Assembly: GCA_964411375.1 (NCBI GenBank)
Contig: CAYPKR010000001.1
Span: forward strand, 422,831 to 486,830
Reading direction: 5' to 3'
Length of the DNA stretch: 64,000 bases
Source: an uncultured Candidatus Saccharibacteria bacterium
GTDB taxonomy: Bacteria > Patescibacteriota > Minisyncoccia > Phycocordibacterales > UBA12088
Shown one piece after another: positions 13,739 to 44,589 of the stretch (positions within the stretch are counted from its first letter, which is position 1; each line of letters begins with the position of its first letter). The notes below the pieces were generated by a model that ran no database searches, was not told the origin of the DNA, and saw nothing but the letters and a program-made list of their open reading frames with translations. Position numbers and translations under genes: made by a program.

Positions 13739-15568
13739 ATGAAAATTGTTTCCGTATCACATTACTACACCCCGCATATCGGCGGACTCGAAATCGTCGC
13801 ACGTAAGTTGGCGCGCAGTTTGACTGCTTCCGGCCACGAGGTTTCGATTGTCACTTTTAAAACTGATCCTATTCCAAGCGTGTCAGTAGAAGAGGGCGTG
13901 ACTGTATATCGTGTTCGCGGTCTCAATTTTTTTGATACCTATTTTGGTATCCCGTTTCCAATTGGCGGAATCGGACTTTTTTCAAGACTCTTTCGTGAGA
14001 TACAAACTGCAGACGCGGTGCACCTCCATGATGTTTTTTATCAGTCGTCTTGGATCGCCTATTTTTTTGCCAGGCTTTTGGGAAAGCCGCTCATTCTGAC
14101 TCAACACGTTGGAATAGTTGAACATCCAAGCGCTATCGTTATGGGGATTCAGAAAGCAGTCTATCGCGCGATTGGACGAATGATTTTTGCGTTCGCTGAA
14201 ACTATTATTGTATACAACCGAAATGTCCGTACCTTCTTGGAAAAAGAAGGGGTGCCAACGGGGAAAATTATCGAACTTCGAAATGGAATCGACACGAATA
14301 CATTCTGTCCAATTGATAGAGCACTTCGAAAAGAGAAGCGTCAGGCGCTCGGGCTTCCCGCGGACCGTCCACTCGCGCTTTTTGTTGGTCGCTTTGTGCC
14401 GAAGAAAGGATTTACCGAAGTATATGGCGCGCGTGATCCAAAATATGATCTAGTTTTTGTTGGAAGTGGTAATTTTCCCGAGGAATACAAAAAAACTAAC
14501 GGTGTCTATTGTCTGGGACCAAAAAACCAAACAGAACTCGCTCTAATCTACCCGCTCGTCGATTTCTTTGTATTTCCTTCAAAAGGAGAAATGTTTACGC
14601 TGGTGATGCAGGAGGCGATGGCAGCAGGACTTCCTATTGTCACCACCAATGAACCTGGCTATGCGGAATATAATCTCGATCAAACACTTATCACATTTGT
14701 TGAGCCAAAAGCAGAATCTCTCAAAACGACAATGACTAAACTGGTTGATGATCCGGAACTGCTCCAAAAAATGGGTGCGTACTCGCGCGCACTTGCGGTT
14801 GAGCGATTTGATTGGGATACCAATATTAGTCCACTACTTTCAATCTATGCGGATATTGCCAAAAGAAAGAGGGTAATCGTTACGACAAGTTGGGACGATG
14901 GTCATATTCTTGATCTCAAGCTCGCAGATCTTCTTCGAAAATATTCCGTAGGTGGAACATTTTATATTTCGCCTCGCGATCATGAAATTATTCCGGAAAA
15001 GCGTCTCTCGAATGAGCAAATCAGAAGTCTCCTTCCGGATTTTGAAATTGGTGCGCACACGATGACCCATCGCCCGCTTCCAACTATTTCGGATGATGCG
15101 GCAAACGAGGAAATTATTACTTCCAAAAAATATCTTGAGGAAGTAATTGGAGGACCGGTCACGAGCTTTTGTTACCCACGCGGTGAATACACACCGACAC
15201 ATGCAATAATGACGAAGCAGGCCGGCTTTCACCTTTCGCGCACGGTTGCTCGTTTTTCATACGACACTGGTTCAAATCCATTTGAACTTCCGACTTCAGT
15301 TCATACGTACGATCACTTCTCTGATGTTTGGGGTGTACTTCGCCTTGCAAAATTCAATCCAATGCGTTTCTTGAAGTTGTATCGCAACTGGGAAGCACAA
15401 GCGATCGCTATGTTTGATGCAGTCTCAAAACGCGGCGGCATATTCCATTTGTGGGGACACAGTTGGGAAGTAGACGATCATAATGATTGGAATCGACTTG
15501 AGCGAGTACTTCAGTATGTCGGGGGCAGGGCGAATGTTTCGTATGTAGCGAACAGAGAACTGGTATGA
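13739..15568 (+). CDS. Bifunctional protein: GT4 glycosyltransferase fused to a polysaccharide deacetylase (NodB-homology) domain.
   Basis: The N-terminus is GT4-like (HYYTPHIGGLE ... EAMAAGLPIVTT). The C-terminal ~230 aa carry VIVTTSWDDGHILDLKLADLL (the NodB motif TxDDG) and HTMTHRPL (His-His metal site). Confidence 0.75.
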   Translation: MKIVSVSHYYTPHIGGLEIVARKLARSLTASGHEVSIVTFKTDPIPSVSVEEGVTVYRVRGLNFFDTYFGIPFPIGGIGLFSRLFREIQTADAVHLHDVFYQSSWIAYFFARLLGKPLILTQHVGIVEHPSAIVMGIQKAVYRAIGRMIFAFAETIIVYNRNVRTFLEKEGVPTGKIIELRNGIDTNTFCPIDRALRKEKRQALGLPADRPLALFVGRFVPKKGFTEVYGARDPKYDLVFVGSGNFPEEYKKTNGVYCLGPKNQTELALIYPLVDFFVFPSKGEMFTLVMQEAMAAGLPIVTTNEPGYAEYNLDQTLITFVEPKAESLKTTMTKLVDDPELLQKMGAYSRALAVERFDWDTNISPLLSIYADIAKRKRVIVTTSWDDGHILDLKLADLLRKYSVGGTFYISPRDHEIIPEKRLSNEQIRSLLPDFEIGAHTMTHRPLPTISDDAANEEIITSKKYLEEVIGGPVTSFCYPRGEYTPTHAIMTKQAGFHLSRTVARFSYDTGSNPFELPTSVHTYDHFSDVWGVLRLAKFNPMRFLKLYRNWEAQAIAMFDAVSKRGGIFHLWGHSWEVDDHNDWNRLERVLQYVGGRANVSYVANRELV

Positions 15569-17796
15569 GCACAGAAACCCGCACAATAGCGATCGTCTCC
15601 CCATACTTTCCGCCAGCCGCTGGCGGTCTTGAACGATATGCATCCGAGATTGCAAATCTTCTCCATACAGAACATGGATACCGCATCGTTGTCCTAACTT
15701 CAGGAGAAAAGGGAGGTGCGGATGTTCAAGAAGTAAGAGACGGCTATACGGTGTATCGACTCGGCTATTCGTTTAAAGTATCGAACACGCCGTTTTCATT
15801 CGCATGGTTTGGAAAGGTGCGACGAATTTTACAAAAAGAATCACCGGATGTTGTTCATATTCATACACCAGTTCCAGGAATCGGTGATATTGCCGCATTT
15901 TTTGCGCGAGTACCCGTTGTTGTGACCTATCACGCAAGTACCATGCGAAAAGGAAAGGGTAATAGTATCGTAAACATGATTATCGCGGGATACGAAAAGA
16001 TACTGCTTCCGTTTCTTCTTAGTAAGGCAGAAAAAATCATTTGCGCGTCCGACTTTATTCGCGACGACTTTCTCAGTGCATACAAAGAAAAAAGTATCAC
16101 TCTCACACCTGGTGTATATCCAGAGCATTTCACCCCAAACGCATTTTTGAAATCAAAATCACCAACTATTCTTTTTGTTGCTGGACGCATTGGCCGAACT
16201 GATACCTATAAAGGACTCGATACCCTTCTTGATGCGATGGCGCTCGTTTCAAAAAAGGTGCCAAGTGCACGGCTCGTTGTCGTTGGAGACGGCGACATGC
16301 TCTATGAATATGAAATGCGCGCAGAGCGACTCACCCCAGGCATTGTTTCCTTTACGGGTACGCTCCATGGAGAAATGTTGACGGCTGAATATCAAAAAGC
16401 ACATGTGCTTGCGCATCCATCGAGAAATGAAAGTTTCGGTATGGTTATTCTTGAAGCAATGGCGACCGAACTTCCCGTTGTCGCAACGAATGTCGGTGGA
16501 ATTCCAACGCTTCTTCAGGACGGAAAAACAGGTTTCCTCGTTCCTCCAGGTAATTCTGAAATGCTCGCCGAAAAATTGATCGAAGTACTTACTGATCATG
16601 AGCTTTCTGCCGCGCTTGGCAAAAACGGACGACTCCGTGCAATCGAAAACTATTCATGGAGTGGTCGCGCAACTACATATCACACTATATTTGAATCGTT
16701 CATTCGTCCGGAGATTGTGCATGCCGTCGGATATTATCCACCGCATATCGGTGGAATGGAGCGTGTCGCCGAAACCATCTCAAAACTTCTCGCAAAAGAT
16801 AATTGGCGAGTCCGTGTACTAACTTCGAACGGCTCACTTAGAGGTGAAGTGGAGCGGAGTGAAAACCTCGTCGTCAAAAGACTTGCGTCATTTGAGTTTG
16901 CACATACACCAATTGCACCAAGCCTTCCTTTTCACCTTTTTTCAATTTCAAAGAGAAGCATCATTCACCTACATCTCTCGCAGGCATTTTGGCCGGAATG
17001 GATTCTTCTTGTTTCAAAACTTCGGGGCATTCCGTACGTGCTACACCTGCATCTCGATGTAGCGCCGTCTGGCCCCCTTGGTCCACTCTTCCTCATCTAC
17101 AAAAAAATGATATGGGGTCCAGTAATCCGAAACGCATCGCTTGTTATCGCGTGTTCTGATGATCTTGCTCGTATGGCGGTCGAAGTATATGGAGCAAAGA
17201 AAACCAAACTTGAGATCATGCCAAACGCGGTAAATGATAATTTCTTTTCTGCTCGAGCCTATACGGTTCCTGCCGATCGTCTACGCTTGCTTTCAATTGG
17301 ACGACTTGCGCCACAGAAAAAAACAGAGCGTCTCGTCAAAATGATGCCGCTCCTCAAAATTCCCGCTGAATTAATTATTGCGGGAGACGGGGAAGATCGC
17401 GCTACGCTTGAGGCATTGGTTCGCGGCGAGAAAATTCCAAACGTCACATTTGTCGGTGAGAAAAATGATGCCGAGATGCGCGCTCTCCACGAGGCGGCAG
17501 ATGCATTTGTGATTGCGTCCGATAGGGAAGGACGTCCGCTCGCGGTTCTTGAAGCAATGGCGGCGGGGCTTCCCATTATTGCGTCTGATGTGGTAGGAAA
17601 TCATGAGCTCGTAGGGGGGGTAGGTATTCTTGTTTCTCCTCCAACCCCTGAAGCATTTGCGACCGCAATCAATACTCTTTGGCAAAATAAAGAGTCGTTG
17701 GAGACATTGTCGAAGCGAAGCGTAAAGCGGGCGAGTGAAGCAACGTGGGATTCGGTCATCCGACGTCTCGAAAATATATATACTACGCTCATATGA
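15565..17796 (+). CDS. Tandem double-GT4 glycosyltransferase.
   Basis: Two complete GT4 units, each ending in an EX7E-type donor motif region (EAMATELPVVATNVGG and EAMAAGLPIIASDVVG). The start overlaps the previous stop (ATGA). Confidence 0.75.
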   Translation: MSTETRTIAIVSPYFPPAAGGLERYASEIANLLHTEHGYRIVVLTSGEKGGADVQEVRDGYTVYRLGYSFKVSNTPFSFAWFGKVRRILQKESPDVVHIHTPVPGIGDIAAFFARVPVVVTYHASTMRKGKGNSIVNMIIAGYEKILLPFLLSKAEKIICASDFIRDDFLSAYKEKSITLTPGVYPEHFTPNAFLKSKSPTILFVAGRIGRTDTYKGLDTLLDAMALVSKKVPSARLVVVGDGDMLYEYEMRAERLTPGIVSFTGTLHGEMLTAEYQKAHVLAHPSRNESFGMVILEAMATELPVVATNVGGIPTLLQDGKTGFLVPPGNSEMLAEKLIEVLTDHELSAALGKNGRLRAIENYSWSGRATTYHTIFESFIRPEIVHAVGYYPPHIGGMERVAETISKLLAKDNWRVRVLTSNGSLRGEVERSENLVVKRLASFEFAHTPIAPSLPFHLFSISKRSIIHLHLSQAFWPEWILLVSKLRGIPYVLHLHLDVAPSGPLGPLFLIYKKMIWGPVIRNASLVIACSDDLARMAVEVYGAKKTKLEIMPNAVNDNFFSARAYTVPADRLRLLSIGRLAPQKKTERLVKMMPLLKIPAELIIAGDGEDRATLEALVRGEKIPNVTFVGEKNDAEMRALHEAADAFVIASDREGRPLAVLEAMAAGLPIIASDVVGNHELVGGVGILVSPPTPEAFATAINTLWQNKESLETLSKRSVKRASEATWDSVIRRLENIYTTLI

Positions 17797-20141
17797 CCTT
17801 CCGTCTGACACAAAAGCATATCTTTTTGGGAACTACTATTTGGTGGGGAACTTTCTTGATCCTTTCCATCTTTCAGATCAATCCATTTCAAATTCAGAAC
17901 ATCGTTGGCATAAGCGCACTTCTCATCCTTCCCGGTCTTCTCACTATTATTCTGCTCGGACTCATTAATCTTGAGTGGTGGGGCAAGATTATGCTTATTC
18001 TCTCAATCAGTATTCTTGAAATCATTGGCGTCGGACTTTTCGTCAATGAACTATTCCCGCACATCGGCATCAATCGCCCGCTTGAAGCATCCCCAGTACT
18101 TCTTACATTAACGATGCTCATTGTATCCCTGCTTCTCTTGGTATATATCCGAGTGCGTGAGATTGATCTTTCGCTGAAGAAATATATTGTCTTTGATTCG
18201 ATCCTCGACACTTTTGTTGCGCTCTTTCCAGCAATCTTCACGCTTCTTGCGTTTCTCGGTTCGATCAGTATCAACAATGGTGGCAGTAATCTTTGGACGA
18301 TCGGCATGCTCGTCGGCATTGGGGTATATGCGTTTATTCTCATCAAGTATCACAAACGCCTCGGGGAAAATGTTATTCCGGTCGCGCTTTTTTTCATCTC
18401 ACTTTCGCTCCTCTTCATGACGTCGCTTCGAAGTTGGTACATCAGCGGGCATGATATTCAGCGTGAATATCGCGTATTCCAGCTCGCAAAAGATGCCGGC
18501 CTCTGGTCAATCGCCAACTACAAAGACGCATATAACGCATGCATGTCGATAACCATTCTGCCGACGATATTGAGCAACCTCCTCAATCTTTCTGATCAAT
18601 ACATATATAAGACGCTCTTCCAGATCATATTTGCAACCGTTCCGAGCGCGATCTTCCTGATTGCTCGTCGCTATGTATCCGGTGCAGCCGCGCTTACTGC
18701 GGCGGTATATTTCATCGCGTTTCCAACTTTCTTCACCGACATGGCATTCTTGAATCGACAAGAAATCGCCTTTCTTTTCTTGGTGGTGATGTTCTACACG
18801 ATTTGGAGCGACTCGATTATGCTCCACACCAAGAGAATCCTCTTCACCTTTTTGGGAGTGGGCTTGGTGCTCTCCCATTACTCGACCACCTACATCGTCA
18901 TTGGACTGTTAGGATTTTTGGTCACGGCACGCCCATTCTATCTATGGCTTACTAAGCGCCTACGATCATTCAAGTGGTTCCAAAATTCTGGTGTTGCTGC
19001 CCTCGAAGAGAATCATGTATCGGCACGAAATATCACGGTGGGTATGGTGGTATTTCTTGCGGCTGCAAGCTTCGTCTGGAGCAGTGTCTTAACTGATACG
19101 TCCTCGAACAGCATTTACCGTGTCGTGACCGAAACGATTCACGTGATGCAACACAATGCAAAAGAGGATTCTCGCTCAAACGATGTACTCTACAGTCTCT
19201 TTTCGTGGCGGGTGAGTGATCCGGCAACCGATTTTGAAACCTACAAAAAAACGGTGGTTGCGCCGCTTCGTGCAGAAATGCCTGACGCGTTTTATCCTGA
19301 CGGAACCTATTCGGACGATTCGATTCACTTGGTCGAAGAAACGCTTCTTCCGCTCACCGCGCTCGGTAAGGCGGTTGAAAATGAGGGAATCAACGTACCG
19401 CAATTTAACTTCCTTTTTAGGCAGAGTTCTGCAAAACTCTTGCAGATATTCATCTTGATCGGTGTTGTCGCCGTATTTGTCACCAGACGATTCGTATCGA
19501 AACCGCTGCCAGATGAATTTATGCTCCTCGTGGGCGGAAGCATTTTGCTTATTCTCTCACAGGTACTCTTGCCCGTCTTGTCAGTCGAATACGGACTTCT
19601 TCGCGCCTTCCAGCAATCACTCATTTTCCTCGGCATCTTTGTCGTTATCGGTAGTGAAGTGATCTTCATGTGGTCGAAGAAAACAACAATGATTGCCGGC
19701 ACGATTGCGGTTGTATTTCTTCTGTCATCAACCGGTGTGTTCACGGAAGCGCTTGGAGGATATATGCCGCAGATGCATCTTGAAAATCGCGGTGTGTATT
19801 ATGATGTGTTCTACGAACACCGAGGCGAAGGTGTCGGTATCGATTGGCTCGTGTCTCGAATGCGTTCCAATGATGGCTATACACTCCAGTCATCAACGCA
19901 GTCTGACCGCTATTCATCGAGTAAACTTCCAATTTTGACCAAGGTAGATATCTTGAATGACATTTACCCGGGCATCGTTCAAAAAAATGCATACATCTTT
20001 TTGGGATATACCAATATTAAAAAAGGGGAAGTGGCGCTCTCATACCAAGGAGACACGCTTTCGTATGTCTATCCGCTAAACTTCTTGGATGATCACAAAG
20101 ATCTTATCTACGTGAATCAGGGGGTAAAAATATATCGATGA
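17793..20141 (+). CDS. Large polytopic membrane protein (>12 TM helices) with a C-terminal extracytoplasmic domain. Putative GT-C-type glycosyltransferase or glycan polymerase (DUF2206-like).
   Basis: The start MTFRLTQ overlaps the upstream stop (ATGA). Many TM helices, an SGHDIQREY loop motif, and a ~250 aa soluble C-terminal domain. The gene is embedded between glycosyltransferases. Confidence 0.5.
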   Translation: MTFRLTQKHIFLGTTIWWGTFLILSIFQINPFQIQNIVGISALLILPGLLTIILLGLINLEWWGKIMLILSISILEIIGVGLFVNELFPHIGINRPLEASPVLLTLTMLIVSLLLLVYIRVREIDLSLKKYIVFDSILDTFVALFPAIFTLLAFLGSISINNGGSNLWTIGMLVGIGVYAFILIKYHKRLGENVIPVALFFISLSLLFMTSLRSWYISGHDIQREYRVFQLAKDAGLWSIANYKDAYNACMSITILPTILSNLLNLSDQYIYKTLFQIIFATVPSAIFLIARRYVSGAAALTAAVYFIAFPTFFTDMAFLNRQEIAFLFLVVMFYTIWSDSIMLHTKRILFTFLGVGLVLSHYSTTYIVIGLLGFLVTARPFYLWLTKRLRSFKWFQNSGVAALEENHVSARNITVGMVVFLAAASFVWSSVLTDTSSNSIYRVVTETIHVMQHNAKEDSRSNDVLYSLFSWRVSDPATDFETYKKTVVAPLRAEMPDAFYPDGTYSDDSIHLVEETLLPLTALGKAVENEGINVPQFNFLFRQSSAKLLQIFILIGVVAVFVTRRFVSKPLPDEFMLLVGGSILLILSQVLLPVLSVEYGLLRAFQQSLIFLGIFVVIGSEVIFMWSKKTTMIAGTIAVVFLLSSTGVFTEALGGYMPQMHLENRGVYYDVFYEHRGEGVGIDWLVSRMRSNDGYTLQSSTQSDRYSSSKLPILTKVDILNDIYPGIVQKNAYIFLGYTNIKKGEVALSYQGDTLSYVYPLNFLDDHKDLIYVNQGVKIYR

Positions 20142-22504
20142 AAATTCTTCGTGTAAATTCGGCTGGTTTTGAAGAAGGTGGCGCAGAAAGCGGCATTGTT
20201 GCTATTCAGCCTGTCCTCGAAAGACTTGGTCATACCGTACGCACTCTGGCGAGTGACGCGAGACCTGATATGCCGCATTTCAATGAATACACGTTTCGCG
20301 CTCCACATGGAATCTTTGCAAAAATAATGTACACGCTGAATTTTTCAGCATATTTTGCGCTTCGCAGTGCAATTCGTGATTACAATCCGGACGTCATTCA
20401 TCTCCACACCCTCGGTTCAGCTTCACCGTTAATCCTTTTTGCGCTTCGAAATGTTCCGACTATTGCTACCGTTCACGGACCAGAAGGGTACACCAGAGAT
20501 CTTTTGATGTGGTGTATGCCAAAATCCGATTTTATTAATGAAGAGTATGATCTCAAAAAACTCCGTCTCGCCGGCATTTTTCGATACATCTATTATCGAT
20601 ATATCAACTACCCGTTCTTCCGAATCGGATTTCGAAATATAACGCACTTTGTAACAATCAGTCGATATATTCAGGGTTTGATGAAGGCGCAAGGAGTTCC
20701 AAGTATTTATATCCCAAACGGCGTGAAGATGCTCCCATACTCGCCACTCGTTGAAGGAAATATTTCTCCCCGAGCGGTATATGCAGGACGATTGGAAAAA
20801 TTCAAAGGTGTTGAATATCTTCTTCGTGCGGTGCCGACGATCGTTGCTGCGATTCCAGAGTTTGAACTTACGGTGGCTGGAACCGGAAGAGATGCGGAAG
20901 AGCTGGAGTCGCTTGCAAAGGAACTTCACATTGAAAAGCACGTGCATTTTCTCGGGCATGTTGGCAAAGCAGAATTATTTGAAATGTACAAAAATGCATC
21001 GATTGTCGTTGTCCCATCAATCTGGCCAGAAAATGCATCAAGAAGCGGTATCGAATCTATGAGTCTCGGTCGCCCTATTATTGGGACGGATGTTGGAGGT
21101 ACCAGTGATTGGCTGATTGATGGTGAAACGGGTTACTTGATTCCACCAAAAGATTCAGGAGCAATTGCGGGTGCAATGATTCGCGCTTTTAGCGATACGA
21201 ATGCGCTGATTCGAATGAGTGCAAATGCTCGTAAAAAAGCAGAAGAGTATGCAATTGAACGCCATGCGGAGAAGATTGTTGAAGTATATGAAAGCGTCGT
21301 CGTAGATACTCATTCGGTTACAGCGTCTGAATCAAAGACAACAACGATCATGTATGTGACCGATCAACTTATGGATCAGGGATCGGCAGCGTATGTACAC
21401 GTGAGTGAAATTTGCACCAATATACAAGCGCTCGGACACAAAATTACGCTCTATGCGCCAACGATTGGAAAAAGAGAGGAAGTTGGATCATACGGAACCC
21501 AATTTATTTCTGTAACAGGAAAATATCTATCAGCGGTGTATCAACCCAAACTATTTATTCGACTTATTCGGGATATTCGAACAAATCGTCCTGATGTTCT
21601 CTATGTACGAAAAAGCCAACTTTTGTTTGTTCCAGCGATTATATCGCGCCTCTTTTCTATTCCACTTATTCTTGAAATAAACGGGCTGGTTGAGCAGGAT
21701 GCAAAGTATGTAAATCCCGACTTGATCGCACGAATATTCCTCCGAACCAAAATATTTGCACTCATTGAAATAATTAATGTACGCACTGCGCGACATTTTG
21801 TCGTGGTCGCGGAAGGTCTTAAGGCCTTTTTGACCGATCGGTATCACATTCCAGAGAATCGTATCTCACTCATTCAAAATGGGGTGAATACTGAATTGTT
21901 TGCTCCACGTGATCGAGTAGAAATGCGCCGTGAGCTTGGACTCCCGGAAGCATTCACCGTTGGATACGTCGGCAGTCTGCATCGCTGGCAGGGACTTCGA
22001 TGTATTGTTGCTGCTGCAAAAGTAGCGCTCGAACAAAAACCTGACATACATTTTTGTATCGCGGGCGGCGCAGGAGCTGATGGCGAATATCTCGAGAGTT
22101 TCATCAAAAAAAATGACCTTACAAAAAATGTTCACCTGATATCAGAAAATGATTACATCGCACTTTCTCACTTTAAGAGTGCTATCGATATTGGCCTGTG
22201 TTATCCCTTGCATATTCGTGCCGGTCTCACGTCACCAATGAAAATTTACGAATACCTTTCAAGTGGATGCCCAGTTATTGCATCAGATATTTCCGGTATG
22301 CGAGAAGAGTTTGGCGACATTATCATGTACGCTGAAGCAGAATCAGCAAAATCACTTGCGGAGAAAATTCTTGAGCTTGCAAATGATTCAGAGAAGCGCG
22401 AAACACTTGCGCTAAATGGTCGCTCCTTCATCGAAGCAGGACATAGTTGGAGAGTTGTTGCAGAAAAAATCCTCGCGATTATTGCTATCTGCGTTGATCT
22501 ATAG
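20138..22504 (+). CDS. Tandem double-GT4 glycosyltransferase.
   Basis: The N-terminal unit has MKILRVNSAGFEEGGAESGI and a GT4 core; the second unit has VGSLHRWQGL...KIYEYLSSGCPVIASDISG. The start overlaps the upstream stop. Confidence 0.7.
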   Translation: MKILRVNSAGFEEGGAESGIVAIQPVLERLGHTVRTLASDARPDMPHFNEYTFRAPHGIFAKIMYTLNFSAYFALRSAIRDYNPDVIHLHTLGSASPLILFALRNVPTIATVHGPEGYTRDLLMWCMPKSDFINEEYDLKKLRLAGIFRYIYYRYINYPFFRIGFRNITHFVTISRYIQGLMKAQGVPSIYIPNGVKMLPYSPLVEGNISPRAVYAGRLEKFKGVEYLLRAVPTIVAAIPEFELTVAGTGRDAEELESLAKELHIEKHVHFLGHVGKAELFEMYKNASIVVVPSIWPENASRSGIESMSLGRPIIGTDVGGTSDWLIDGETGYLIPPKDSGAIAGAMIRAFSDTNALIRMSANARKKAEEYAIERHAEKIVEVYESVVVDTHSVTASESKTTTIMYVTDQLMDQGSAAYVHVSEICTNIQALGHKITLYAPTIGKREEVGSYGTQFISVTGKYLSAVYQPKLFIRLIRDIRTNRPDVLYVRKSQLLFVPAIISRLFSIPLILEINGLVEQDAKYVNPDLIARIFLRTKIFALIEIINVRTARHFVVVAEGLKAFLTDRYHIPENRISLIQNGVNTELFAPRDRVEMRRELGLPEAFTVGYVGSLHRWQGLRCIVAAAKVALEQKPDIHFCIAGGAGADGEYLESFIKKNDLTKNVHLISENDYIALSHFKSAIDIGLCYPLHIRAGLTSPMKIYEYLSSGCPVIASDISGMREEFGDIIMYAEAESAKSLAEKILELANDSEKRETLALNGRSFIEAGHSWRVVAEKILAIIAICVDL

Positions 22505-37363: not shown

Positions 37364-38005
37364 ATGGAAATATATAAAGTAAGAAAAAATCAATATTTAT
37401 GGGGAGGTCTATTTTTTGGCATAATCCTGGTCGCTCTTAGCATCTCCTTGATTGGTGAAGGATCTATCGAAAGAACTAAATTCTTAGGGTTAATTGGATT
37501 TTGGGCCATAGCAATTATCCTGACTCTTGCCCCGTTTGGTTTTAAGTTAGAGGTAGGAGAAGATTACGTAAAAACATTTTTTTTGGGATTCTGTCTAAGA
37601 TACTTAAAGCGCGAAAATATTGAAGTCATTGAATATGGAAATTTGATGCGTGGCGGGGGATTGGGTTATGGAAAAGGCTTGAAAGGTTGGGAAAGAACTA
37701 AGAGAGGAAATCGAAAGTATTTTAGTATCGGGGAAGATGCTTATGGTAAGGGAGCAATGAAAGGCATTGCTCGTGCTCTTAGTAAAGACTCTCTACTTGA
37801 AAATAAGTTTAAGAACCAGGATCCCCATAAGGAAATTGATAGTAAAAAGAAAGTTCAGATAGCCATGATATGGACTGCTGGCTCGATAATAGGTTTCTTT
37901 CTTTTGCTTAATTATGCTCAAAATACAAAATTCGCCATTCTTATTCCGATTTCTATTCTCTCGTTAATTATTTCAATGGTGTATTTAATTAAGGCCAAGA
38001 GTTAA
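37364..38005 (+). CDS. Putative cognate immunity protein: four-TM membrane protein with a central bPH-like soluble domain.
   Basis: Starts 1 nt after the toxin stop. TM helices GLFFGIILVALSISLIG, LIGFWAIAIILTLAPFGF, two C-terminal helices, and a central Gly/Lys-rich domain. Position and topology fit immunity to a membrane-targeting toxin. Confidence 0.45.
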   Translation: MEIYKVRKNQYLWGGLFFGIILVALSISLIGEGSIERTKFLGLIGFWAIAIILTLAPFGFKLEVGEDYVKTFFLGFCLRYLKRENIEVIEYGNLMRGGGLGYGKGLKGWERTKRGNRKYFSIGEDAYGKGAMKGIARALSKDSLLENKFKNQDPHKEIDSKKKVQIAMIWTAGSIIGFFLLLNYAQNTKFAILIPISILSLIISMVYLIKAKS

Positions 38006-39777
38006 TTTGTAATCACTTTACTAAAAGTTCTGCTATTTCTCGCTAGCAATTGCTCATAATTGTCAGGAGTAATTGGTTCACTAAAATCGGGCTTCTTTCT
38101 TCTGCGTCCTAGCAGTTCCCATTGAGGAACTTTTCCCTCGATGCGGAACTCTATAGTCTTGTTTTCTTCAGTATTGCCATTTTGTGTAATCGGCAGAGCT
38201 CCATAAATAGAGAACTGATCAAGTTTGAAAACTATTTTGGTTACGTGCTCCAACAGAAATTTTCTTTTGGAGTCAAACTCTTTGGCATTTATGAACTGCA
38301 CTCGTGCATTTTCGCAGTACTCTTTGATGCTCGAATTGACGACATCAGTCTTGTACAGCAGTGGTATTCGCTTTGCCAATTCAATGTACTCCGTCTTCAG
38401 AGCACTTGTTTCCTCGTCGTATTTTTGGCTCTTTGAGACATACACCTCTTTCTCAAGATTGCCCATCGTATATATCTCCACCAAGCGTTTCTTTTTGTGA
38501 GTAATCAGTTTTATTTTTTGATCAATATACCTGCGCTGTCGTTCTAATTTCTTGTGTTCTTTATCCGCATCAATTTTTAAGAAATCCATACACTTCTTGA
38601 GCTTGGACGGCTCGAGCATGAAATCGAAGATTGCCTTCCAGACATAGTATTCAAGAATATCGGCTTTGACCTCCTTGTTGTGGCATTTCTTCAATGGATT
38701 ATTTACAGAGTGCATTCTTTGTCGATATCTCCAGTTACATTTATACGCACGCTTATGAATAACCCTGGGTACTTTTGTACGTTTGTCGTGATAGTGAGTC
38801 CGGTATGCAAAGAAGCTACTTCCGCATTCGCCACAGCGTACTAGCGAGGAAAGCAACTGAATCACCCTGGGATTCCTATACTTCTTCCTGTTCCATTGAA
38901 TACGCTCTTGTACCGTATCGAAAATCTTTTGCGGTATGATTCTCGGTACCTCGATACCTACCCATTCAGTCCGGTCTCGCTTTAACATTTTCTTCGTCGT
39001 GCTCTGTATCCCATGTATTGGATTCGCGTATTCACGCACCACTTTCATGGTATTGAAATAGCGAATGCCGGTGTACATCTCATTTCGAGTCATGCATTTG
39101 ATCAGGGAAGTGCGCCAGATATTTTTCCTCCTCTTTGTTGGCGCACCCATTTCCTCGAGTCGCCTTGTTATCTGATTTACCCCAACCTGTCCCTTCGCAT
39201 ATGTTTCAAATACATACCGTACTACTTTGGCTTCCTCCTCATTGATCGTGTAGTACGGATCAGACGTGGGGGTACGTTTGTGATAGTCATAGCCGTATAT
39301 GTTATTGCCACATCCGAGCAGTTTTCCTTGTTGCAGTCGATGCTGTCGTGCTCGCACTGTGCGCTCAATGATCTTTGCTCTCTCTAGTTCTGCTACCGCT
39401 CCAAGTACGGTGACCGTGAACTTGTTTTCAGGATTGTGGATGTAGTCCTTGCCGTTGATGATGATTTGTTTTTTGTACTTTAGGATCTCCGCAATGATGA
39501 TGGTCTGGTACGTTACTTCCCGGGCAATCCGGTCGGTGTTGAGAAAGTAGATCACATCGAATACATCCGTTTTCAGGTCTTTCCGTAATTCATCCATTGC
39601 CGGACGATCCAATCGGGCACCGGTATATCCGTCGTCCACGTACTCCTTCACGAGCAGATTGCCGTCCCCGGCAATCTGTCGTTTCAGCTCAACTATCTGG
39701 CTCTCGATCGTTTTCTCGTTCCGCTGAAGTGTCGAACTGACTCGGGCATAGTAACTTGCGCGTTTCATATACCCCAT
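38002..39777 (-). CDS. Large serine recombinase (integrase).
   Basis: N-terminal resolvase catalytic domain (YARVSSTLQ with Ser nucleophile, DGYTGARLDRP), recombinase domain, Cys-rich zinc ribbon (CGECGSSF...C) and C-terminal coiled coil. About 590 aa. Confidence 0.8.
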   Translation of the reverse strand: MGYMKRASYYARVSSTLQRNEKTIESQIVELKRQIAGDGNLLVKEYVDDGYTGARLDRPAMDELRKDLKTDVFDVIYFLNTDRIAREVTYQTIIIAEILKYKKQIIINGKDYIHNPENKFTVTVLGAVAELERAKIIERTVRARQHRLQQGKLLGCGNNIYGYDYHKRTPTSDPYYTINEEEAKVVRYVFETYAKGQVGVNQITRRLEEMGAPTKRRKNIWRTSLIKCMTRNEMYTGIRYFNTMKVVREYANPIHGIQSTTKKMLKRDRTEWVGIEVPRIIPQKIFDTVQERIQWNRKKYRNPRVIQLLSSLVRCGECGSSFFAYRTHYHDKRTKVPRVIHKRAYKCNWRYRQRMHSVNNPLKKCHNKEVKADILEYYVWKAIFDFMLEPSKLKKCMDFLKIDADKEHKKLERQRRYIDQKIKLITHKKKRLVEIYTMGNLEKEVYVSKSQKYDEETSALKTEYIELAKRIPLLYKTDVVNSSIKEYCENARVQFINAKEFDSKRKFLLEHVTKIVFKLDQFSIYGALPITQNGNTEENKTIEFRIEGKVPQWELLGRRRKKPDFSEPITPDNYEQLLARNSRTFSKVITN

Positions 39778-39821
39778 GGATGACGCTGATCCATGGGGGA
39801 GTCAAGGATTTTCTGGTATAT

Positions 39822-40241
39822 CTATTTACCTCTCTCGTTGTACTTTGGCTGATGAGCAAGAATTTGCTCTGCTTCCCATCTTAGAGCTTCCTCTGCATTG
39901 TCACAAAGATGGTAACCAAAATGAGTAGCTTCTGGCCAGTAATCATCTCGTAGGTGGCAAAGTAGACGGTCACGCATTCCACCGTTTCCGGTTCCTACAC
40001 CAATATAGACTGGCTGCAATTGATTTTGTGCTGTCAAAAAACCACAAAAATAGACCCCAATTGCCCTTGAATTCCAGTTACCAATAATTTCGTCGTTGTA
40101 AAGGTAATGCCCTTGATAGTTGTAGATCATAGTTTTTTGTTTCCCCTCGTAATAATTCTGGGTTCGAATAATTGAACCTTCAGCCGCTGTGTGAGAGTAG
40201 GCAGTGGGAGAGGAGTTACCTCTCGGGAGAGATTTTCGCAC
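39822..40241 (-). CDS. Hypothetical protein, possibly a GIY-YIG-like nuclease fold.
   Basis: GVYFCGF...PVYIGVGTG...RL..H...E arrangement loosely resembling the GIY / YIG / Arg / Glu motif order. Weak. Confidence 0.25.
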   Translation of the reverse strand: MRKSLPRGNSSPTAYSHTAAEGSIIRTQNYYEGKQKTMIYNYQGHYLYNDEIIGNWNSRAIGVYFCGFLTAQNQLQPVYIGVGTGNGGMRDRLLCHLRDDYWPEATHFGYHLCDNAEEALRWEAEQILAHQPKYNERGK

Positions 40242-40327
40242 CCGCGCTCTTCACCGTCAATCTTTACGGACTTCTGTTAGTATTGCATGTTATGGACTGG
40301 ATATGCCCTATATGATATACTTCAAGC

Positions 40328-40990
40328 ATGCATCCCATTCAAGAGAACCTGCTTCTTTTATCGAAAACCGAAAATCTTGCGAAATTAAGCTTGAGAGAGA
40401 TGGCTAAGCGCATTGCGATGCCTAAAGAATCTCCTCAAAAAATTAAGCATCATCTCCTCCAGCTTCAGAAGAAGGGATTTTTGAGTATCGACAGGGCGAA
40501 GGGGATGATGAGCAGAACAACCCTTGAGCCAGATTGGGCAAAAGGACTTTTGAAGAAAACGTCTCGGTTGTTTTCAATTCCCGTTATTGGTACCGCTAAT
40601 TGTGGCCCAGCAACAGTTTTTGCTGAACAAAATTTCCAAGGTTTTCTTCGGGCTTCGAGTAAACTCGTCGGTAGATCAAGACCGAATGGGTTGTATGCGT
40701 TAAAAGCTGACGGATCATCGATGAATAGGGCGGAAATAAACGGTAAAAAAATTGAAGATGGAGATTATGTAATAATCGATAGTAAAAACAAAAGCGTTAG
40801 TACCGGAGACGTAGTACTCGCCATTATTGACAATAAAGCAACTGTAAAAAGATTTATTGACGATCGTCTAAATAAGCAGATTGTATTGAAAGCTGACTCA
40901 TCATTTGACTATGCTCCTATCTATTTGCATCCGAGTGATGATTTCAGTATTAGCGGGAAAATCGTAGGTGTAATTAAAAGATCATCATAA
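40328..40990 (+). CDS. LexA/phage CI-like repressor: N-terminal wHTH plus C-terminal S24 self-cleaving peptidase domain.
   Basis: The N-terminus is HTH-like (SLREMAKRIAMPKESPQKIKHHLLQLQKKGFL). The C-terminal S24 domain has LKADGSSMNRAEI (Ser nucleophile) and ATVKRF (Lys general base). Confidence 0.65.
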   Translation: MHPIQENLLLLSKTENLAKLSLREMAKRIAMPKESPQKIKHHLLQLQKKGFLSIDRAKGMMSRTTLEPDWAKGLLKKTSRLFSIPVIGTANCGPATVFAEQNFQGFLRASSKLVGRSRPNGLYALKADGSSMNRAEINGKKIEDGDYVIIDSKNKSVSTGDVVLAIIDNKATVKRFIDDRLNKQIVLKADSSFDYAPIYLHPSDDFSISGKIVGVIKRSS

Positions 40991-40994
40991 TTCT

Positions 40995-41228
40995 ATGACT
41001 AAGAAAAATTTTCATAGTGTGCCCTGGGGAGAAGATTGGGCGGTTAAAAAAGAAGGAATTAATAAGCCGGTTTCTATTCATCGAACGCAGGCCACCGCTG
41101 AAGACAAAACCCATACTCTTGCAAAAAAGAATGAAGTTGAGGCTGTGTACCACAACAAACACGGGCAAATTAAAGACAAAGACAGTTTTGGAAACGACCC
41201 TCATCCGCCAATCGACCGTAAACATTAG
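40995..41228 (+). CDS. DUF2188-family small protein.
   Basis: FHSVPWGEDWAVKKEG...VSIHRTQATAEDKTHTLAKKNEVEAVYHNKHGQIKDKDSFGNDPHPP closely follows the DUF2188 consensus (HVVP..GGWAVK...DSYGNDPNPP). Confidence 0.55.
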   Translation: MTKKNFHSVPWGEDWAVKKEGINKPVSIHRTQATAEDKTHTLAKKNEVEAVYHNKHGQIKDKDSFGNDPHPPIDRKH

Positions 41229-41280
41229 TTTTGTTGGTAACCCCTCTTCGCAAATTCTTGGGATCTGCTAGGGTACTGAC

Positions 41281-41505
41281 TGATAGCCTTCTTTAGGCTA
41301 TCATTGTAGCTACAATTAAATATTGCCCCGCAAGGGGCTAAGACCTAAACCAATGACTTCGGTCACTGGCATGGTCCCAAATCGTAGTGCATAGAGAACC
41401 CGTCATTCAGGGCGTGCACTACGTTATCAGGGGAAACTCTGGTAGGGCCGCAAGGCCTCCTGGTGGCGGGCTTTGTGTTTTCCACCAGACACATTACCAA
41501 TGTAA
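41281..41505 (+). ncRNA. Candidate structured non-coding RNA of unassigned class.
   Basis: A dense series of hairpins: 8-bp stem GATAGCCT/AGGCTATC; GCCCC-GCAA-GGGGC (GNRA loop); TGAC-TTCG-GTCA (UUCG loop); GGCC-GCAA-GGCC (GNRA loop); 7-bp CTGGTGG/CCACCAG; and a 9-bp long-range pairing CGTAGTGCA/TGCACTACG. Stable GNRA/UUCG tetraloops occur only on the + strand reading. No ORF is supported here. Confidence 0.3.
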
Positions 41506-41514
41506 TTCGTCGGT

Positions 41515-42036
41515 ATGGAAAATACTGAAAAGGTACAGAGACCAATTTATAAAAAACCGTGGTTCTGGTTGATCGCAACTTTCCTCGTACTTTTTATTGT
41601 TAGTTTGTCAGGTCAGCATCCTTCAAATAATGCAGTTTCAAAAAGTATCCAAAGACCGCCAACTCTAAGTGACCAAATTACTATCGCATGTGACACATTT
41701 GCGACTGGTACCCCGGTAACACTTAGTTACAAAGAACTTGAGAAGAGTCCCGACAATTTTTCAAACCAGTATGCTCGCTTCACTGGACAAGTACTGCAGA
41801 TTCAAGAATTAGATAATCTTGGATATATGCGGCTGGCAATAGTAAAGAATGAGTTCGGTGATTGGGATTTATCACACGTACTATACGTTCAGTACACAGG
41901 GAATACAGAAGCAGTGGAAGATGATGTCGTTACTGTAACTGGGGTGATGGAGGGAAGTCATACCTATACGTCACAAGCAAACTATCAGATCACCGTACCT
42001 TCAATGTATGCGTGCTCAGTTAAAAAGATAAGTTAA
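41515..42036 (+). CDS. Membrane-anchored extracytoplasmic hypothetical protein (DUF4352-like beta-sandwich?).
   Basis: N-terminal TM WFWLIATFLVLFIVSL, then a beta-rich domain with one Cys pair. No firm family. Confidence 0.3.
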   Translation: MENTEKVQRPIYKKPWFWLIATFLVLFIVSLSGQHPSNNAVSKSIQRPPTLSDQITIACDTFATGTPVTLSYKELEKSPDNFSNQYARFTGQVLQIQELDNLGYMRLAIVKNEFGDWDLSHVLYVQYTGNTEAVEDDVVTVTGVMEGSHTYTSQANYQITVPSMYACSVKKIS

Positions 42037-42476
42037 GCATCCTCGTTAAATCCCAAACTCCTATTCCTATGCTTCTGCTTCTCGCCCCTTTCATTCCGAA
42101 GCATTTCCGCAGTCTGCTTACTCACTCTAATTTCTCCATCTTCACTTCGAAATGAATCCATGGAATTGTTACTTTCGGTTTCAACAATCTGAACCTTGTT
42201 TCGATATCGATTCGAATTGTGAGTCAGAAAAAACTTTGCCGCACCCAAGTCACCATTTCGTACCTTGTTAACTAGAGTTACTTCTGCCAACTCGATAAGA
42301 TTTTCTCTGCCACTATTTTGCGCTTTCAGCACTTTCTGTTTGAATCGATAGTTGCTATGCATCCATCGATAGATAGTGGCGCGAGAAACTCCTACTTTCT
42401 TACAGGCGTGGTTAATGAACGGCGTTGTCGCTAGAATCTCTAGAAACTTCTTTCGCTCATCGCTACTGCGAGCCAT
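42033..42476 (-). CDS. HTH-domain protein resembling phage terminase small subunit or a transposase HTH.
   Basis: KKFLEILATTPFINHACKKVGVSRATIYRWM is a homeodomain-like HTH typical of TerS N-termini. The start overlaps the upstream ParB-methylase gene. Confidence 0.35.
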   Translation of the reverse strand: MARSSDERKKFLEILATTPFINHACKKVGVSRATIYRWMHSNYRFKQKVLKAQNSGRENLIELAEVTLVNKVRNGDLGAAKFFLTHNSNRYRNKVQIVETESNNSMDSFRSEDGEIRVSKQTAEMLRNERGEKQKHRNRSLGFNEDA

Positions 42477-43806
42477 GGATCTTAACGCGTTTCTTGCCCG
42501 TAAACTTCTCCCATCGATTCAGAATGACTTCGGCATAGACAGGGGACTTCTCCATGACGAAGCATCGACGCTTAAGAGTAATAGAAGCGATCAGAGTGGA
42601 TCCACTCCCGCCAAATGGTTCAAGAACAATTTGGTTTCGAGTAGTAAGTACCTTAATGTAGGGAATTAAAATCTCTACAGGTTTCACCCCGAAGATGATA
42701 CCTTGTCCGCTCGTCTTCCGATTTGCCGCATTGAATTCGATAAAATCAGTCGGAGAATACTTCTTGCCACTCTCGTATCCTTCCCATTGCGGTTTTCCCG
42801 ATATGGCAAACAGAGCGGTAAGATATTCATTTCCAAGCAATCCTTCGTCTTCCGTATTTACTCCAAGCTTCCCACTGGTTCCCAGTAGTGCAATGTCATG
42901 CTTAGAGAAGAATTTGTATTTACTCGGATGGTTTTGATTTCGATTCGGTACATGCCAAACAAGCATGTTGCGGACTTTCCAGTTTTTCTCCATCTCGTTC
43001 CAGACTTCCCGAATATTTTTCCAGTTCTCGTAGCAGATGATTGAAAAATCTACTTTGGCTACTGTCGCAACATTACCCATCCAGAGTTCGGTAAAATTTT
43101 CTGGTAATACCTCGGTCTCGATATATCGTCGATCCTGTTTTGCGCCGAATCCTTTCGACTTACTCCCGGGCTTCAGATATTCAAGGCGATACGGCGGATC
43201 AGTCATGACCATGTCTATTTTTTCGGAACCTGCGAGTGCTTGAGCATCTGTCTCTATAGTGCTGTCGCCACACATCAACCGAGATCCATCGAGATCATAT
43301 AGGTCTCCCTTCTGTACGGTAATTTCGGTAATATCGAGTTTCTCCAGTTCCTTTTCTATATCGAAGTCCGACTCCTCCAGTTCGTCATCAAAGACTTCAT
43401 CTATCTCTTCTGAATCGAATCCAATATCGGTGAGAAAAGACTCATCGAATTCTGCGAGTAGATCAAAGTCCCACTCGCCGACTGCTTTGTTCAGTCGCAA
43501 ACATAAATCTTTTTCTTTTTCCAAATCACTAATCTCAACAAATATTACCGGCACCTCGGTATATCCCAGATCCTTCAATACCTCGAAGCGGAGATTGCCT
43601 CCAATGATTATCCCTTCTCGACCCGCCGCTTTGTTCACCAGCAGGGGATCTTTCACTCCATGAAGCTCAATACTTTTTCGGACTGGAGTTTTCGTTTCTT
43701 CTGAAATAGCTCGAGGATTGTACTCTGCATGGCGCAGGGAATCAGTAGGTACGTACTCGACATGCATCCTATACGCCTCATTTGTTGTATGAGAATCACT
43801 AACCAT
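42463..43806 (-). CDS. ParB-like nuclease domain fused to an N6-adenine/N4-cytosine DNA methyltransferase (phage-type).
   Basis: The N-terminal ParB/Srx-like segment (IIIGGNLRFEVLKDLGY), an acidic linker, then the methylase core: CGDSTIETD...IDMVMTDPPY (motif IV DPPY) and VLEPFGGSGSTLIAS (motif I). Confidence 0.75.
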   Translation of the reverse strand: MVSDSHTTNEAYRMHVEYVPTDSLRHAEYNPRAISEETKTPVRKSIELHGVKDPLLVNKAAGREGIIIGGNLRFEVLKDLGYTEVPVIFVEISDLEKEKDLCLRLNKAVGEWDFDLLAEFDESFLTDIGFDSEEIDEVFDDELEESDFDIEKELEKLDITEITVQKGDLYDLDGSRLMCGDSTIETDAQALAGSEKIDMVMTDPPYRLEYLKPGSKSKGFGAKQDRRYIETEVLPENFTELWMGNVATVAKVDFSIICYENWKNIREVWNEMEKNWKVRNMLVWHVPNRNQNHPSKYKFFSKHDIALLGTSGKLGVNTEDEGLLGNEYLTALFAISGKPQWEGYESGKKYSPTDFIEFNAANRKTSGQGIIFGVKPVEILIPYIKVLTTRNQIVLEPFGGSGSTLIASITLKRRCFVMEKSPVYAEVILNRWEKFTGKKRVKIHGSQ

Positions 43807-44045
43807 ATGTATTTTTTAGGAATTAATCGACTCCGGAGTCGGAGAGTAGAGGAACATTCCTCAACTCATACATATAAGTATGCGCGCGAAAACCTATTTT
43901 TAATTGGGAGCGCTTCATTTTTCACTTTGTCTGGAATGCTCCTAAATAGGGGATTATACGGAATGAAATTTTGCACGAATTTTTTGCCACGAAAATATTA
44001 CTCTGACAATATATTCAAATTTCTGGGAGATGTAGACTAAATTGC

Positions 44046-44384
44046 ATGAAACTGAACATGAGATTCAACTGGCCGCTCGGTGAAAATTCTGCATACGTAA
44101 GCGTGGGAATGCCTAATATCGACGATCTTAAAAAGGAGTTCAAAATTGGCGTGATTCCCAAAGCACACCCAAAGGAAATTCAGTGGCAAGACCTTGGCTG
44201 GATCCCAGGAAATGAAATCGATGCAAAAATGGAATTCCGAGTAGATAGGGGCGACAAGGTTGTATTGCAATATGGCGATCTCGGTACGAACAAAGCGGAA
44301 GGGGGAATAACAATAGATTCGGAAGAAGAGTGGCCTATGGAGGCGCAGGGAGCCGCGGTCACTGACATGTCTTGGAATCTTTGA
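44046..44384 (+). CDS. Small hypothetical protein.
   Basis: ORF only; no motifs. Located at the distal edge of the phage-like element. Confidence 0.2.
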   Translation: MKLNMRFNWPLGENSAYVSVGMPNIDDLKKEFKIGVIPKAHPKEIQWQDLGWIPGNEIDAKMEFRVDRGDKVVLQYGDLGTNKAEGGITIDSEEEWPMEAQGAAVTDMSWNL

Positions 44385-44589
44385 TTCTCGTACTGCGTTC
44401 CGGTGTCTCATCTGTCGCATTTTGCTGGTACCATATGTATGACAAGGTTCTTTGAAAAAGTCGCGCATCTACATATATATTGTGTTGGTTTCGATACCGG
44501 GGGAATGGGCGAAAATATTTGAAAACCCAGTTGGACTACTAACTGGATTCAATCCTGGCTTGTACGATTTAACGTACTGTAATGCCTAG

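Follow-up and report, generated by a model that had tools for sequence, protein, structure and literature searches.

This analysis concerns a densely structured stretch of DNA at positions 41281–41505 of a 64,000-nucleotide (nt) segment, called the window throughout, from an uncultured Candidatus Saccharibacteria bacterium [CAYPKR010000001.1, positions 422,831–486,830 of the forward strand]. The stretch lies between an upstream gene that ends at 41228 and a downstream gene that begins at 41515. It holds a promoter-like sequence, a conserved 5′ leader and a copy of the LOOT RNA (a name that we take to stand for Lactobacillales, OD1, OP11 and TM7), followed by a tail, a U-rich tract and the approach to a gene for a small membrane protein.

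No credible open reading frame (ORF) occupies 41281–41505, as had been noted in a preliminary description made from the letters of this DNA. The region is crossed only by two short, overlapping mechanical ORFs, one of 71 amino acids (aa) with a TTG start at 41363–41578 on the minus strand and one of 61 aa with a GTG start at 41387–41572 on the plus strand. All six hairpins listed in that description were located by sequence inspection at their places on the plus strand, and a seventh that had not been listed, TATCAGGG-GAAA-CTCTGGTA, was found at 41425–41444. The plus strand of the 225-nt stretch folds to −92.2 kcal/mol versus −64.6 ± 4.4 kcal/mol in 200 dinucleotide shuffles (z −6.26), none of which folded as well. 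For the minus strand the folding z was −4.78.

The whole window was scanned with cmscan against Rfam 15 at gathering thresholds. The sole match above threshold was the LOOT RNA (RF03000) at 41342–41458, with 70.6 bits against a gathering score of 46.4 and an E-value of 3e-11. It was found on the plus strand only and spans positions 1–121 of the 121 in the model, and an extended covariance model (see below) scores the window copy at 98.6 bits. The match covers four of the seven hairpins, which become the inner part of P1 (capped by UUCG), P2 (the helix of 9 bp), P3 (capped by GAAA) and P4 (GGCC-GCAA-GGCC). The element had been put forward as a novel non-coding RNA; the full-length match refutes this, and we regard it as nearly certain that the element is a copy of a known family. 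Matches to snoZ105 (E 0.22) and to two CRISPR-repeat models (E 2.7 and 8.7) over the GCAA hairpin are far below the thresholds and were rejected as chance. ARAGORN found no tRNA or tmRNA genes across the whole window.

LOOT is one of the 224 motifs reported by Weinberg et al. (2017, Nucleic Acids Research 45:10811; PMC5737381), and a 2020 methods paper gives about 43 base pairs in six helices for it (PMC7657543). Rfam files the family as 'Gene; sRNA' (small RNA) and records no function. In the literature searched, LOOT appeared by name only and no functional study was found; the main text of the 2017 paper is silent, and its supplement was not covered by the search.

Relatives were first collected with the pattern CCTAAACCN{8,24}GGCATGG, which gave at least 120 matches each in genome and viral contigs, most of them by chance. 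Nine true LOOT loci came from this loose pattern; they belonged to Parcubacteria, Gottesmanbacteria, Dojkabacteria, Patescibacteria and unclassified metagenome-assembled genomes (MAGs), together with one viral contig. Tighter patterns added viral contigs and 120 metagenome loci (among the matches listed). The metagenome pattern fixed the last three pairs of the helix P5 described below and three U, and it left the covarying pairs free. After filtering, the comparison set comprised 114 distinct sequences, of which 101 were realigned by a covariance model. Among the relatives are MAGs of Parcubacteria, Gottesmanbacteria, Saccharibacteria and Dojkabacteria as well as viral contigs. When 17 relatives were submitted to Rfam, all 17 were assigned to RF03000 with 55–100 bits. 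The closest relative among the matches listed was the IMG/VR viral contig L249 (relatives are given here by locus number), which has the same tail as the window. A blastn search of 41230–41520 against 50,697 phage records gave no match, and the window proteins compared with plasmid and phage records reached identities of 25–31% at best. It should be mentioned that the 5-kb MAG contig L003 carries two convergent LOOT copies about 500 nt apart, at 3618–3764 (+) and 4272–4412 (−), which score 78 and 82 bits, both over the Rfam threshold.

The LOOT core P1–P4 occupies 41342–41458 on the plus strand, as placed by the RF03000 alignment. P1 (41342–41376) is composed of outer GACC/GGUC pairs, an internal loop CCUAAAC/GCAUGG and an inner stem capped by UUCG (TGAC-TTCG-GTCA in the DNA, 41354–41365), and both its outer and inner pairs covary. 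The conserved P1 loop and the A-rich linker that follows are present in the window as GACCUAAACC...GGCAUGGUC CCAAAU (41342–41382). P2 is formed by CGUAGUGCA/UGCACUACG (in DNA CGTAGTGCA/TGCACTACG; 41383–41391 and 41415–41423) and has 9 bp in the window. In the covariance-model alignment of 101 sequences its ten pairs are 99.4% paired and all of them show double-sided changes; L249, for instance, has the compensatory form CGUUAGGUA/UACCUAACG. Within P2 lie an A-rich 5′ bulge, UAGAGAA (41392–41398), and an apical segment (41399–41414). The apical stem, which has 8 bp in the Rfam consensus, is reduced in the window to CCC/GGG (−4.5 kcal/mol), and cmscan marks it as non-canonical and of low posterior probability; the same nucleotides form P5. 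P3, UAUCAGGG-GAAA-CUCUGGUA (41425–41444), has 8 pairs that are 98.5% paired and all covary, and its GAAA loop is conserved, being written in upper case in the Rfam consensus. P4, GGGCC-GCAA-GGCCU (41445–41458), carries a stable tetraloop, which varies across the family.

The 11-nt GAAA-tetraloop receptor, with the canonical sequence CCUAAG...UAUGG, is found in group I and group II introns and in RNase P. In the invariant P1 loop CCUAAAC/GCAUGG, A-C replaces G-U and the rest is the same. By likeness to the canonical motif, we infer that this loop is a variant GAAA-tetraloop receptor. LOOT has a receptor-like motif that coexists with an invariant GAAA loop, and the P3 loop and the P1 loop probably dock within one molecule; both motifs are invariant, so that covariation is uninformative on this contact. 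The module GACCUAAACC...GGCAUGGUU also occurs in a group II intron (RF00029) in L246. Here, at 4942–5045 (−) and 2938–3026 (−), and also in L254, L011, L022 and L035, we observed a different RNA that shares GACCUAAACC...GGCAUGGUU and GAGAACCCUG..CAGGG with LOOT. In L246 a reverse-transcriptase-like ORF follows, and some 1.9 kb further downstream, on that strand, Rfam places group II domain V/VI. The part common to LOOT and this intron is probably the same tetraloop-receptor module, located in intron domain II/III. Homology of LOOT to group II introns was rejected, as the window has neither a match to RF00029 nor other intron features.

Beyond the end of the Rfam model, a tail pairs back to the apex of P2. 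The 5′ strand of this helix, P5, is CCCGUCAUU (41399–41407), which makes up the 5′ arm and the loop at the apex of P2; the 3′ strand is GGUGGCGGG (41462–41470). An extended MAFFT alignment (A1) misaligned P2 and P4, where column pairing failed. On this alignment RNAalifold chose the P5 helix unprompted, and its nine core pairs were almost always paired, versus 36–45% in slid controls for the whole structure. A covariance model (R1) was then built on P1–P4 only, with the P5 columns left unpaired, and the 101 sequences were realigned with it. In the resulting alignment P5 is 99.1% paired and six of its nine pairs show double-sided changes, one pair being found as GC35/AU27/CG21/UG9/UA6; with the whole structure slid along the alignment, 30–45% are paired. 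Among 16 sequences collected without any tail requirement, P5 was the best helix in 15. In the window the P5 duplex is predicted at −14.0 kcal/mol, against −4.5 kcal/mol for the apical stem that it replaces. On this comparative evidence P2 and P5 cross and form a pseudoknot, with the 7-nt A-rich bulge as linker. As judged from the aligned sequences, P5 extends the LOOT family model by about 22 nt, and the Rfam match stops about 22 nt short of the end of the extended model in all 16 relatives with comparable coordinates.

The preliminary description had tied its claim to covariation and to conservation outside this genome, and both are decisively strong among the relatives. Its view that a phage-derived block here holds a functional structured RNA specific to one strand, and neither a coding stretch nor a simple DNA site, was borne out.

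Directly after P5 comes a U-rich tract of terminator-like appearance, CUUUGUGUUUU (41471–41481). By column counts its family consensus is CUUUUUGU or CUUUGUGU, and in the window it is interrupted (UUUGUGUUUU). Of the 16 sequences collected without a tail requirement, 14 have the tract; elsewhere its first three U are fixed by the search pattern. A terminator scan of 40900–41700 gave no terminator-like site on the plus strand. Unlike the local hairpin of an intrinsic terminator, which has a loop of 3–8 nt, P5 is a long-range, pseudoknotted helix with about 55 nt between its strands.

An extension of P5 through the A-rich bulge and the U tract was considered and rejected as weak (87% paired versus 81% in shuffles; one pair shows some CG/AU exchange). 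Such an extended P5 leaves no linker to P2, and it is possible only as an alternative state. The three bases that follow CUUU (41475–41477 in the window; columns 219–221 of alignment A2) are TTG in 60, GTG in 32 and ATG in 5 of the 114 loci. An upstream ORF opened by these triplets (97 of 114) was rejected, as its frame is no longer than the others (median 11.5 codons versus 10 and 8). The variable first base after CUUU may pair with the A-rich bulge instead (positions 73:219, AU48/CG16/GU11). Two variants of this region were observed besides. In L272 the tail with its U tract occurs twice, as GGCTAGCGGCGGGCTTTGAG and then CCTAGCGGCGGGTTTTGTGTTTTT, with the duplication about 45 nt past the tail; this offers the P2 apex a second possible partner. 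LOOT copies of the Dojkabacteria type, in L113 at 1172–1325 (+) and in L250, have low scores (54.6 bits with Rfam, 42 bits with R1) and a much longer P2 apex; they keep a 10-bp P5 (GGUCUUCCGU/GCGGGAGACC), and a local hairpin replaces the U tract after it.

A consensus scan placed a sigma-70-type promoter at 41276–41304 on the plus strand, with the −35 box CTGACT (41276–41281), a 17-nt spacer and the −10 box TATCAT (41299–41304). The conserved 5′ leader ACAAUUAAAUAUU follows at 41312–41324, and transcription probably starts at or close to 41312 (ACAAUU). In the relatives, the motif ACAAYY(N)AAUA was found 7–30 nt upstream of P1 in 79 of 114 sequences versus 8 of 114 in a control interval. In 68 of these 79 loci a TANNNT box ends 6–8 nt before the conserved ACAA, and the spacing between the −10 box and the leader motif is fixed across relatives. 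Judging from this arrangement, the LOOT transcript is probably made from its own promoter, with a start at about 41312.

The palindrome GATAGCCT-N5-AGGCTATC (41282–41289 and 41295–41302) lies in the promoter spacer and overlaps the −10 box. A palindrome of the form ATAGC-N7–9-GCTAT is found at the same place in L249, L227, L294, L328 and L195. Because it recurs at the same promoter position in these loci, an operator is suggested, and the palindrome, which has the look of a site for a dimeric DNA-binding protein, most likely acts at the DNA level. It had been described as an 8-bp stem of the RNA (41282–41302); since it takes up the promoter spacer and the −10 box, lying between and over the −35 and −10 boxes and upstream of the probable start at 41312, it most likely does not belong to the RNA. 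In the window, the gene for a CI-like repressor is found 300 nt upstream of the palindrome. The argument that the tetraloops are stable on the plus strand only holds for the GCAA, UUCG and GAAA loops and fails for this stem, whose loop is TCTTT.

The hairpin GCCCC-GCAA-GGGGC (41325–41338, −11.2 kcal/mol) stands between the leader and P1. It is present in the window as described and does not hold as a feature of the family, since it is an optional insertion in the 5′ leader. A leader of 27–30 nt, long enough for the hairpin, occurs in only six of the 79 motif-bearing loci (L249, L277, L281, L294, L307 and the window), and from its distribution the hairpin appears to be a lineage-specific insertion. 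Read as one RNA, the original list of hairpins is made up of RNA helices together with one promoter palindrome and one alternative helix, which is discussed below.

LOOT is regularly followed by a gene. An ORF of at least 50 codons on the same strand was found after LOOT in 109 of the 114 loci, with its start at a median of 41 nt past the tail (interquartile range 32–54). ORF starts 20–70 nt after the tail were found in 78% of cases, versus 28% at random positions. A hydrophobic stretch of 18 residues near the N-terminus was present in 73% of the products, compared with 18% for random-position ORFs and 10% for divergent upstream ORFs. In a Pfam search of the 109 downstream proteins most remained without a family, the commonest families being Trypsin_2 (trypsin-like peptidase, 6) and DUF4352 (3). 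No shared metabolic or transport theme was found among the 109 proteins, and the hydrophobic N-terminus is their only common property.

In the window, the downstream gene (41515–42036 on the plus strand, start region 41507–41527) encodes a protein of 173 aa with an N-terminal membrane helix (KKPWFWLIATFLVLFIVSL). The protein matches phrog_26645 (9e-22) and, weakly, phrog_5319 and phrog_4980 (superinfection exclusion); the exact protein was found on one Logan contig only (run SRR12487045). Proteins with the same 'KKPWFW + membrane helix' N-terminus are also encoded after LOOT in L265, L365 and L304, and in L195, L294 and L227 the gene after LOOT encodes a NucS-like protein.

We next consider pairings that compete with this fold near the start of the gene, whose enrichment was judged against cross-locus permutation controls. 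A copy of the locus's own P2 5′ strand with the AAA linker stands 2–8 nt before the ATG above the 99th control percentile in 13 loci, where about 0.5 are expected; four of the 13 (L294, L261, L334 and L302) belong to the window's subfamily. Such a copy was seen in about 20 loci overall, and at these loci the P2 3′ strand could mask the start site. A complement of the tail (anti-tail) just after the U tract is also enriched, with a mean score of 15.25 versus 12.93 (p 5e-8), and 31% of loci versus 13% of controls score at least 18. In the window this is the hairpin CUGGUGG/CCACCAG (41460–41466 and 41482–41488 on the plus strand, −15.3 kcal/mol). It had been listed as a 7-bp stem, and it can indeed form; it competes, however, with the far better conserved long-range helix P5, which uses the same tail.

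The segment 41475–41491 of the plus strand, GUGUUUUCCA..AGAC, contains the anti-tail and can alternatively pair with the start-codon region. In a predicted fold in which the tail was constrained as in P5, it pairs with GUC..UGGAAAAUAC across the AUG (41507–41525). The duplex of the post-tail segment with the window's own start region is predicted at −17.0 kcal/mol, and only 4% of cross-locus controls reach −12 kcal/mol. The LOOT core itself pairs with its own start region at −18 kcal/mol or lower in 24% of loci versus 10% of controls (p 0.006). All these alternative pairings (tail with anti-tail, P2 copies and start complementarity) are limited to a minority of loci, and by predicted energy the window is an extreme case of the anti-tail and start-region kinds.

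The element lies in an island at 38.0–44.5 kb (38002–44500) with a G+C content of 0.42–0.44, compared with 0.51–0.55 in the right flank (44–50 kb). The island contains genes for a large serine integrase, a CI/LexA-like S24 repressor, a DUF2188 protein, LOOT with its membrane protein, a protein resembling a small terminase subunit and a ParB-methyltransferase; among the genes seen in 38002–44500, none was for a structural phage protein. It is a small phage-derived integrated element and could be of the satellite type or a remnant instead of a full prophage. L249 shares the arrangement of recombinase, LOOT, membrane protein and methylase, and in L227 LOOT adjoins a large terminase gene. Around the island are glycosyltransferase, efflux and two-component genes, and an ORF of 2,523 codons (29791–37362, +) lies directly upstream of it, after very large family-4 glycosyltransferase genes (13739–22504). 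A promoter with a gene beside the integrase end of a prophage makes up a phage 'moron' or lysogenic-conversion cassette. By analogy, the position of LOOT, at the integrase end and with its own promoter, looks like that of such a cassette.

Comparison of the sequences establishes the promoter geometry, the helices P1–P5 by covariation, the U tract and the gene linkage. For the function, the best reading, to which we give about an even chance, is that LOOT, with its own promoter and P1–P5 fold, serves as a cis-acting leader and gates the gene that starts some 40 nt further on. In the window this gene would be that of the small membrane protein, of the superinfection-exclusion or 'moron' type. 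The tail would have two alternative partners, the apex of P2 (P5, −14 kcal/mol) and CCACCAG at 41482–41488 (−15 kcal/mol). While P5 holds the tail, the freed segment 41475–41491 would pair across the start codon (41507–41527, −17 kcal/mol) and translation would be blocked; with the tail on the anti-tail, the start region would be released. P5 and the U tract may in addition terminate part of the transcripts. Ligand, protein, temperature and folding kinetics are candidates for what shifts the balance.

Several points weigh against this reading. The switch proposed for the window is built on thermodynamic predictions for one sequence, and the two pairing schemes would be opposite in their logic, the folded LOOT meaning gene on where a P2 copy is present and gene off in the window. 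The P2-strand copy reaches only a background score in the window, and complementarity of the post-tail segment to the start region is modest across the family (mean −6.8 versus −5.7 kcal/mol, p 0.017). Unlike the regulons of classic riboswitches, the downstream genes have no shared biochemical function, most being without a Pfam family. A conserved helix with a U tract would fit a discrete, terminated small RNA equally well, as would the label given by Rfam. Finally, the large sample was itself selected, by its search pattern, for the beginning of the tail and three U.

The main rival reading is a stand-alone small RNA, about 170 nt in length, that its own promoter would start and that P5 and the U tract, as an intrinsic terminator, would end. 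It would act in trans, on RNAs or as the partner of a protein, and the downstream gene would be a mere neighbour or be reached by leaky read-through. This seems to us somewhat unlikely. The own promoter with its fixed start, a conserved GC-rich helix with CUUUUUGU at once behind it, the Rfam class and the functional heterogeneity of the downstream genes all speak for such an RNA. Neither the co-orientation at a fixed distance (109 of 114 loci) nor the bias to membrane and secreted proteins is predicted by it, however, and the start-region complementarity follows each locus's own sequence. P5 is moreover long-range and pseudoknotted instead of a canonical terminator hairpin, the U tract of the window is interrupted, and the terminator scan gave no site on the plus strand. 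If LOOT were a metabolite- or ion-sensing riboswitch, P1–P5 would be the aptamer and the tail, anti-tail and start pairings the expression platform. A compact pseudoknotted fold with invariant junction nucleotides and a tetraloop-receptor pair, mutually exclusive helices that adjoin the U tract and the start codon, and a position in the 5′ untranslated region are consistent with this view. It is nevertheless improbable: no theme of metabolism or transport unites the downstream genes (the trypsin-like peptidase, their most frequent family, accounts for 6 of 109, and most have no family), no ligand can be proposed, and many copies are in phage-derived DNA.

We consider it quite unlikely that LOOT acts through its three-dimensional fold as such, as a self-cleaving or other ribozyme, as a multimer held by intermolecular GAAA/receptor contacts, in the way shown for ROOL, GOLLD and some RNAs of less than 200 nt, or as a 5′ module that stabilises or localises mRNAs for membrane proteins. 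A GAAA loop and a receptor-like motif strictly conserved in one RNA would suit this idea, as would the link to genes for proteins with hydrophobic N-termini, the association with phages, which recalls ROOL and GOLLD (PMC5737381; PMC12286853), and the finding that short RNAs (<200 nt) can build large assemblies (bioRxiv 10.64898/2026.07.01.735769). Against it, a tetraloop and its receptor in one molecule are most simply intramolecular, no sequence feature points specifically to cleavage or assembly, and the locus-specific start-region complementarity is left unexplained. The view that the hairpins are signals of the DNA alone (operators, an attachment (att) site, terminators of adjacent genes), without any discrete structured RNA, can appeal to the 8-bp palindrome over the promoter and to the nearby integrase gene. 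It is very improbable, being already contradicted by covariation: compensatory changes from G-C to A-U and G-U preserve five helices in 101 sequences. The Rfam match and the tetraloops are moreover strand-specific, and the RNA is conserved from candidate-phyla bacteria to viral contigs despite unrelated flanks.

Carried further, the reading of LOOT as a cis-acting leader would make it an unrecognised class of regulatory leaders, in which a receptor-braced pseudoknot toggles against locus-specific anti-start sequences and the U tract and gates genes for membrane and secreted proteins. It would be carried by candidate-phyla bacteria and by lysogenic-conversion cassettes, both in phages of these bacteria and in other phages, and its trigger would be a new ligand, a protein or the folding pathway itself. 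Taken as a whole, this wider proposal is less likely than not.

As an instance of the family the window copy is ordinary. What is of value is the comparison, through which an orphan RNA with no functional lead since 2017 gains a probable transcription start, a covarying pseudoknot (about 22 nt), a U-rich tract, a near-universal link to a gene at fixed distance, mostly for a membrane or secreted protein, and locus-specific start complementarity. Should LOOT prove to be a regulatory leader, few other RNA control elements would be known from candidate-phyla bacteria or for the accessory genes of phages. An extended LOOT model would improve genome annotation.

Compared with the family as described by RF03000, the window copy has P1 with the CCUAAAC/GCAUGG loop, the A-rich linker, a long P2, the GAAA-capped P3 and the tetraloop-capped P4. 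It differs in adding a GNRA hairpin in the leader and in its weak apical stem. The Rfam model ends at P4, whereas the leader ACAAYUNAAUA, P5, the U-rich tract and the linkage to the downstream gene lie outside it.

Pseudoknot riboswitches with translational or terminator platforms include the preQ1, SAM-II and fluoride classes. LOOT resembles them in its pseudoknot between a loop and the 3′ tail beside expression signals and in alternative pairings at the ribosome-binding region, whereas it is larger, has a tetraloop-receptor module and precedes genes that are not functionally coherent. We know of no riboswitch class in which the strand of an internal helix is the sequestering element and its partner is duplicated at the start codon, as in some LOOT loci. 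The moron cassette is approached in the window by an autonomous promoter and a small membrane-protein gene weakly similar to superinfection-exclusion proteins, placed between the integrase and repressor genes and the packaging genes. It differs in that most sampled LOOT copies come from candidate-phyla genomes and metagenome contigs, and to our knowledge no moron has a conserved 170-nt pseudoknotted leader.

ROOL and GOLLD are orphan ornate RNAs, often found in prophages, with no function recorded (PMC5737381); they have a length of 500–800 nt, occur near tRNA genes and form homo-oligomeric cages by cryo-electron microscopy (PMC12286853). In contrast, LOOT is about 170 nt long, the window is free of tRNA genes, and LOOT is known here from sequence alone. 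What it has in common with ROOL and GOLLD is that it, too, is an orphan structured RNA associated with phages.

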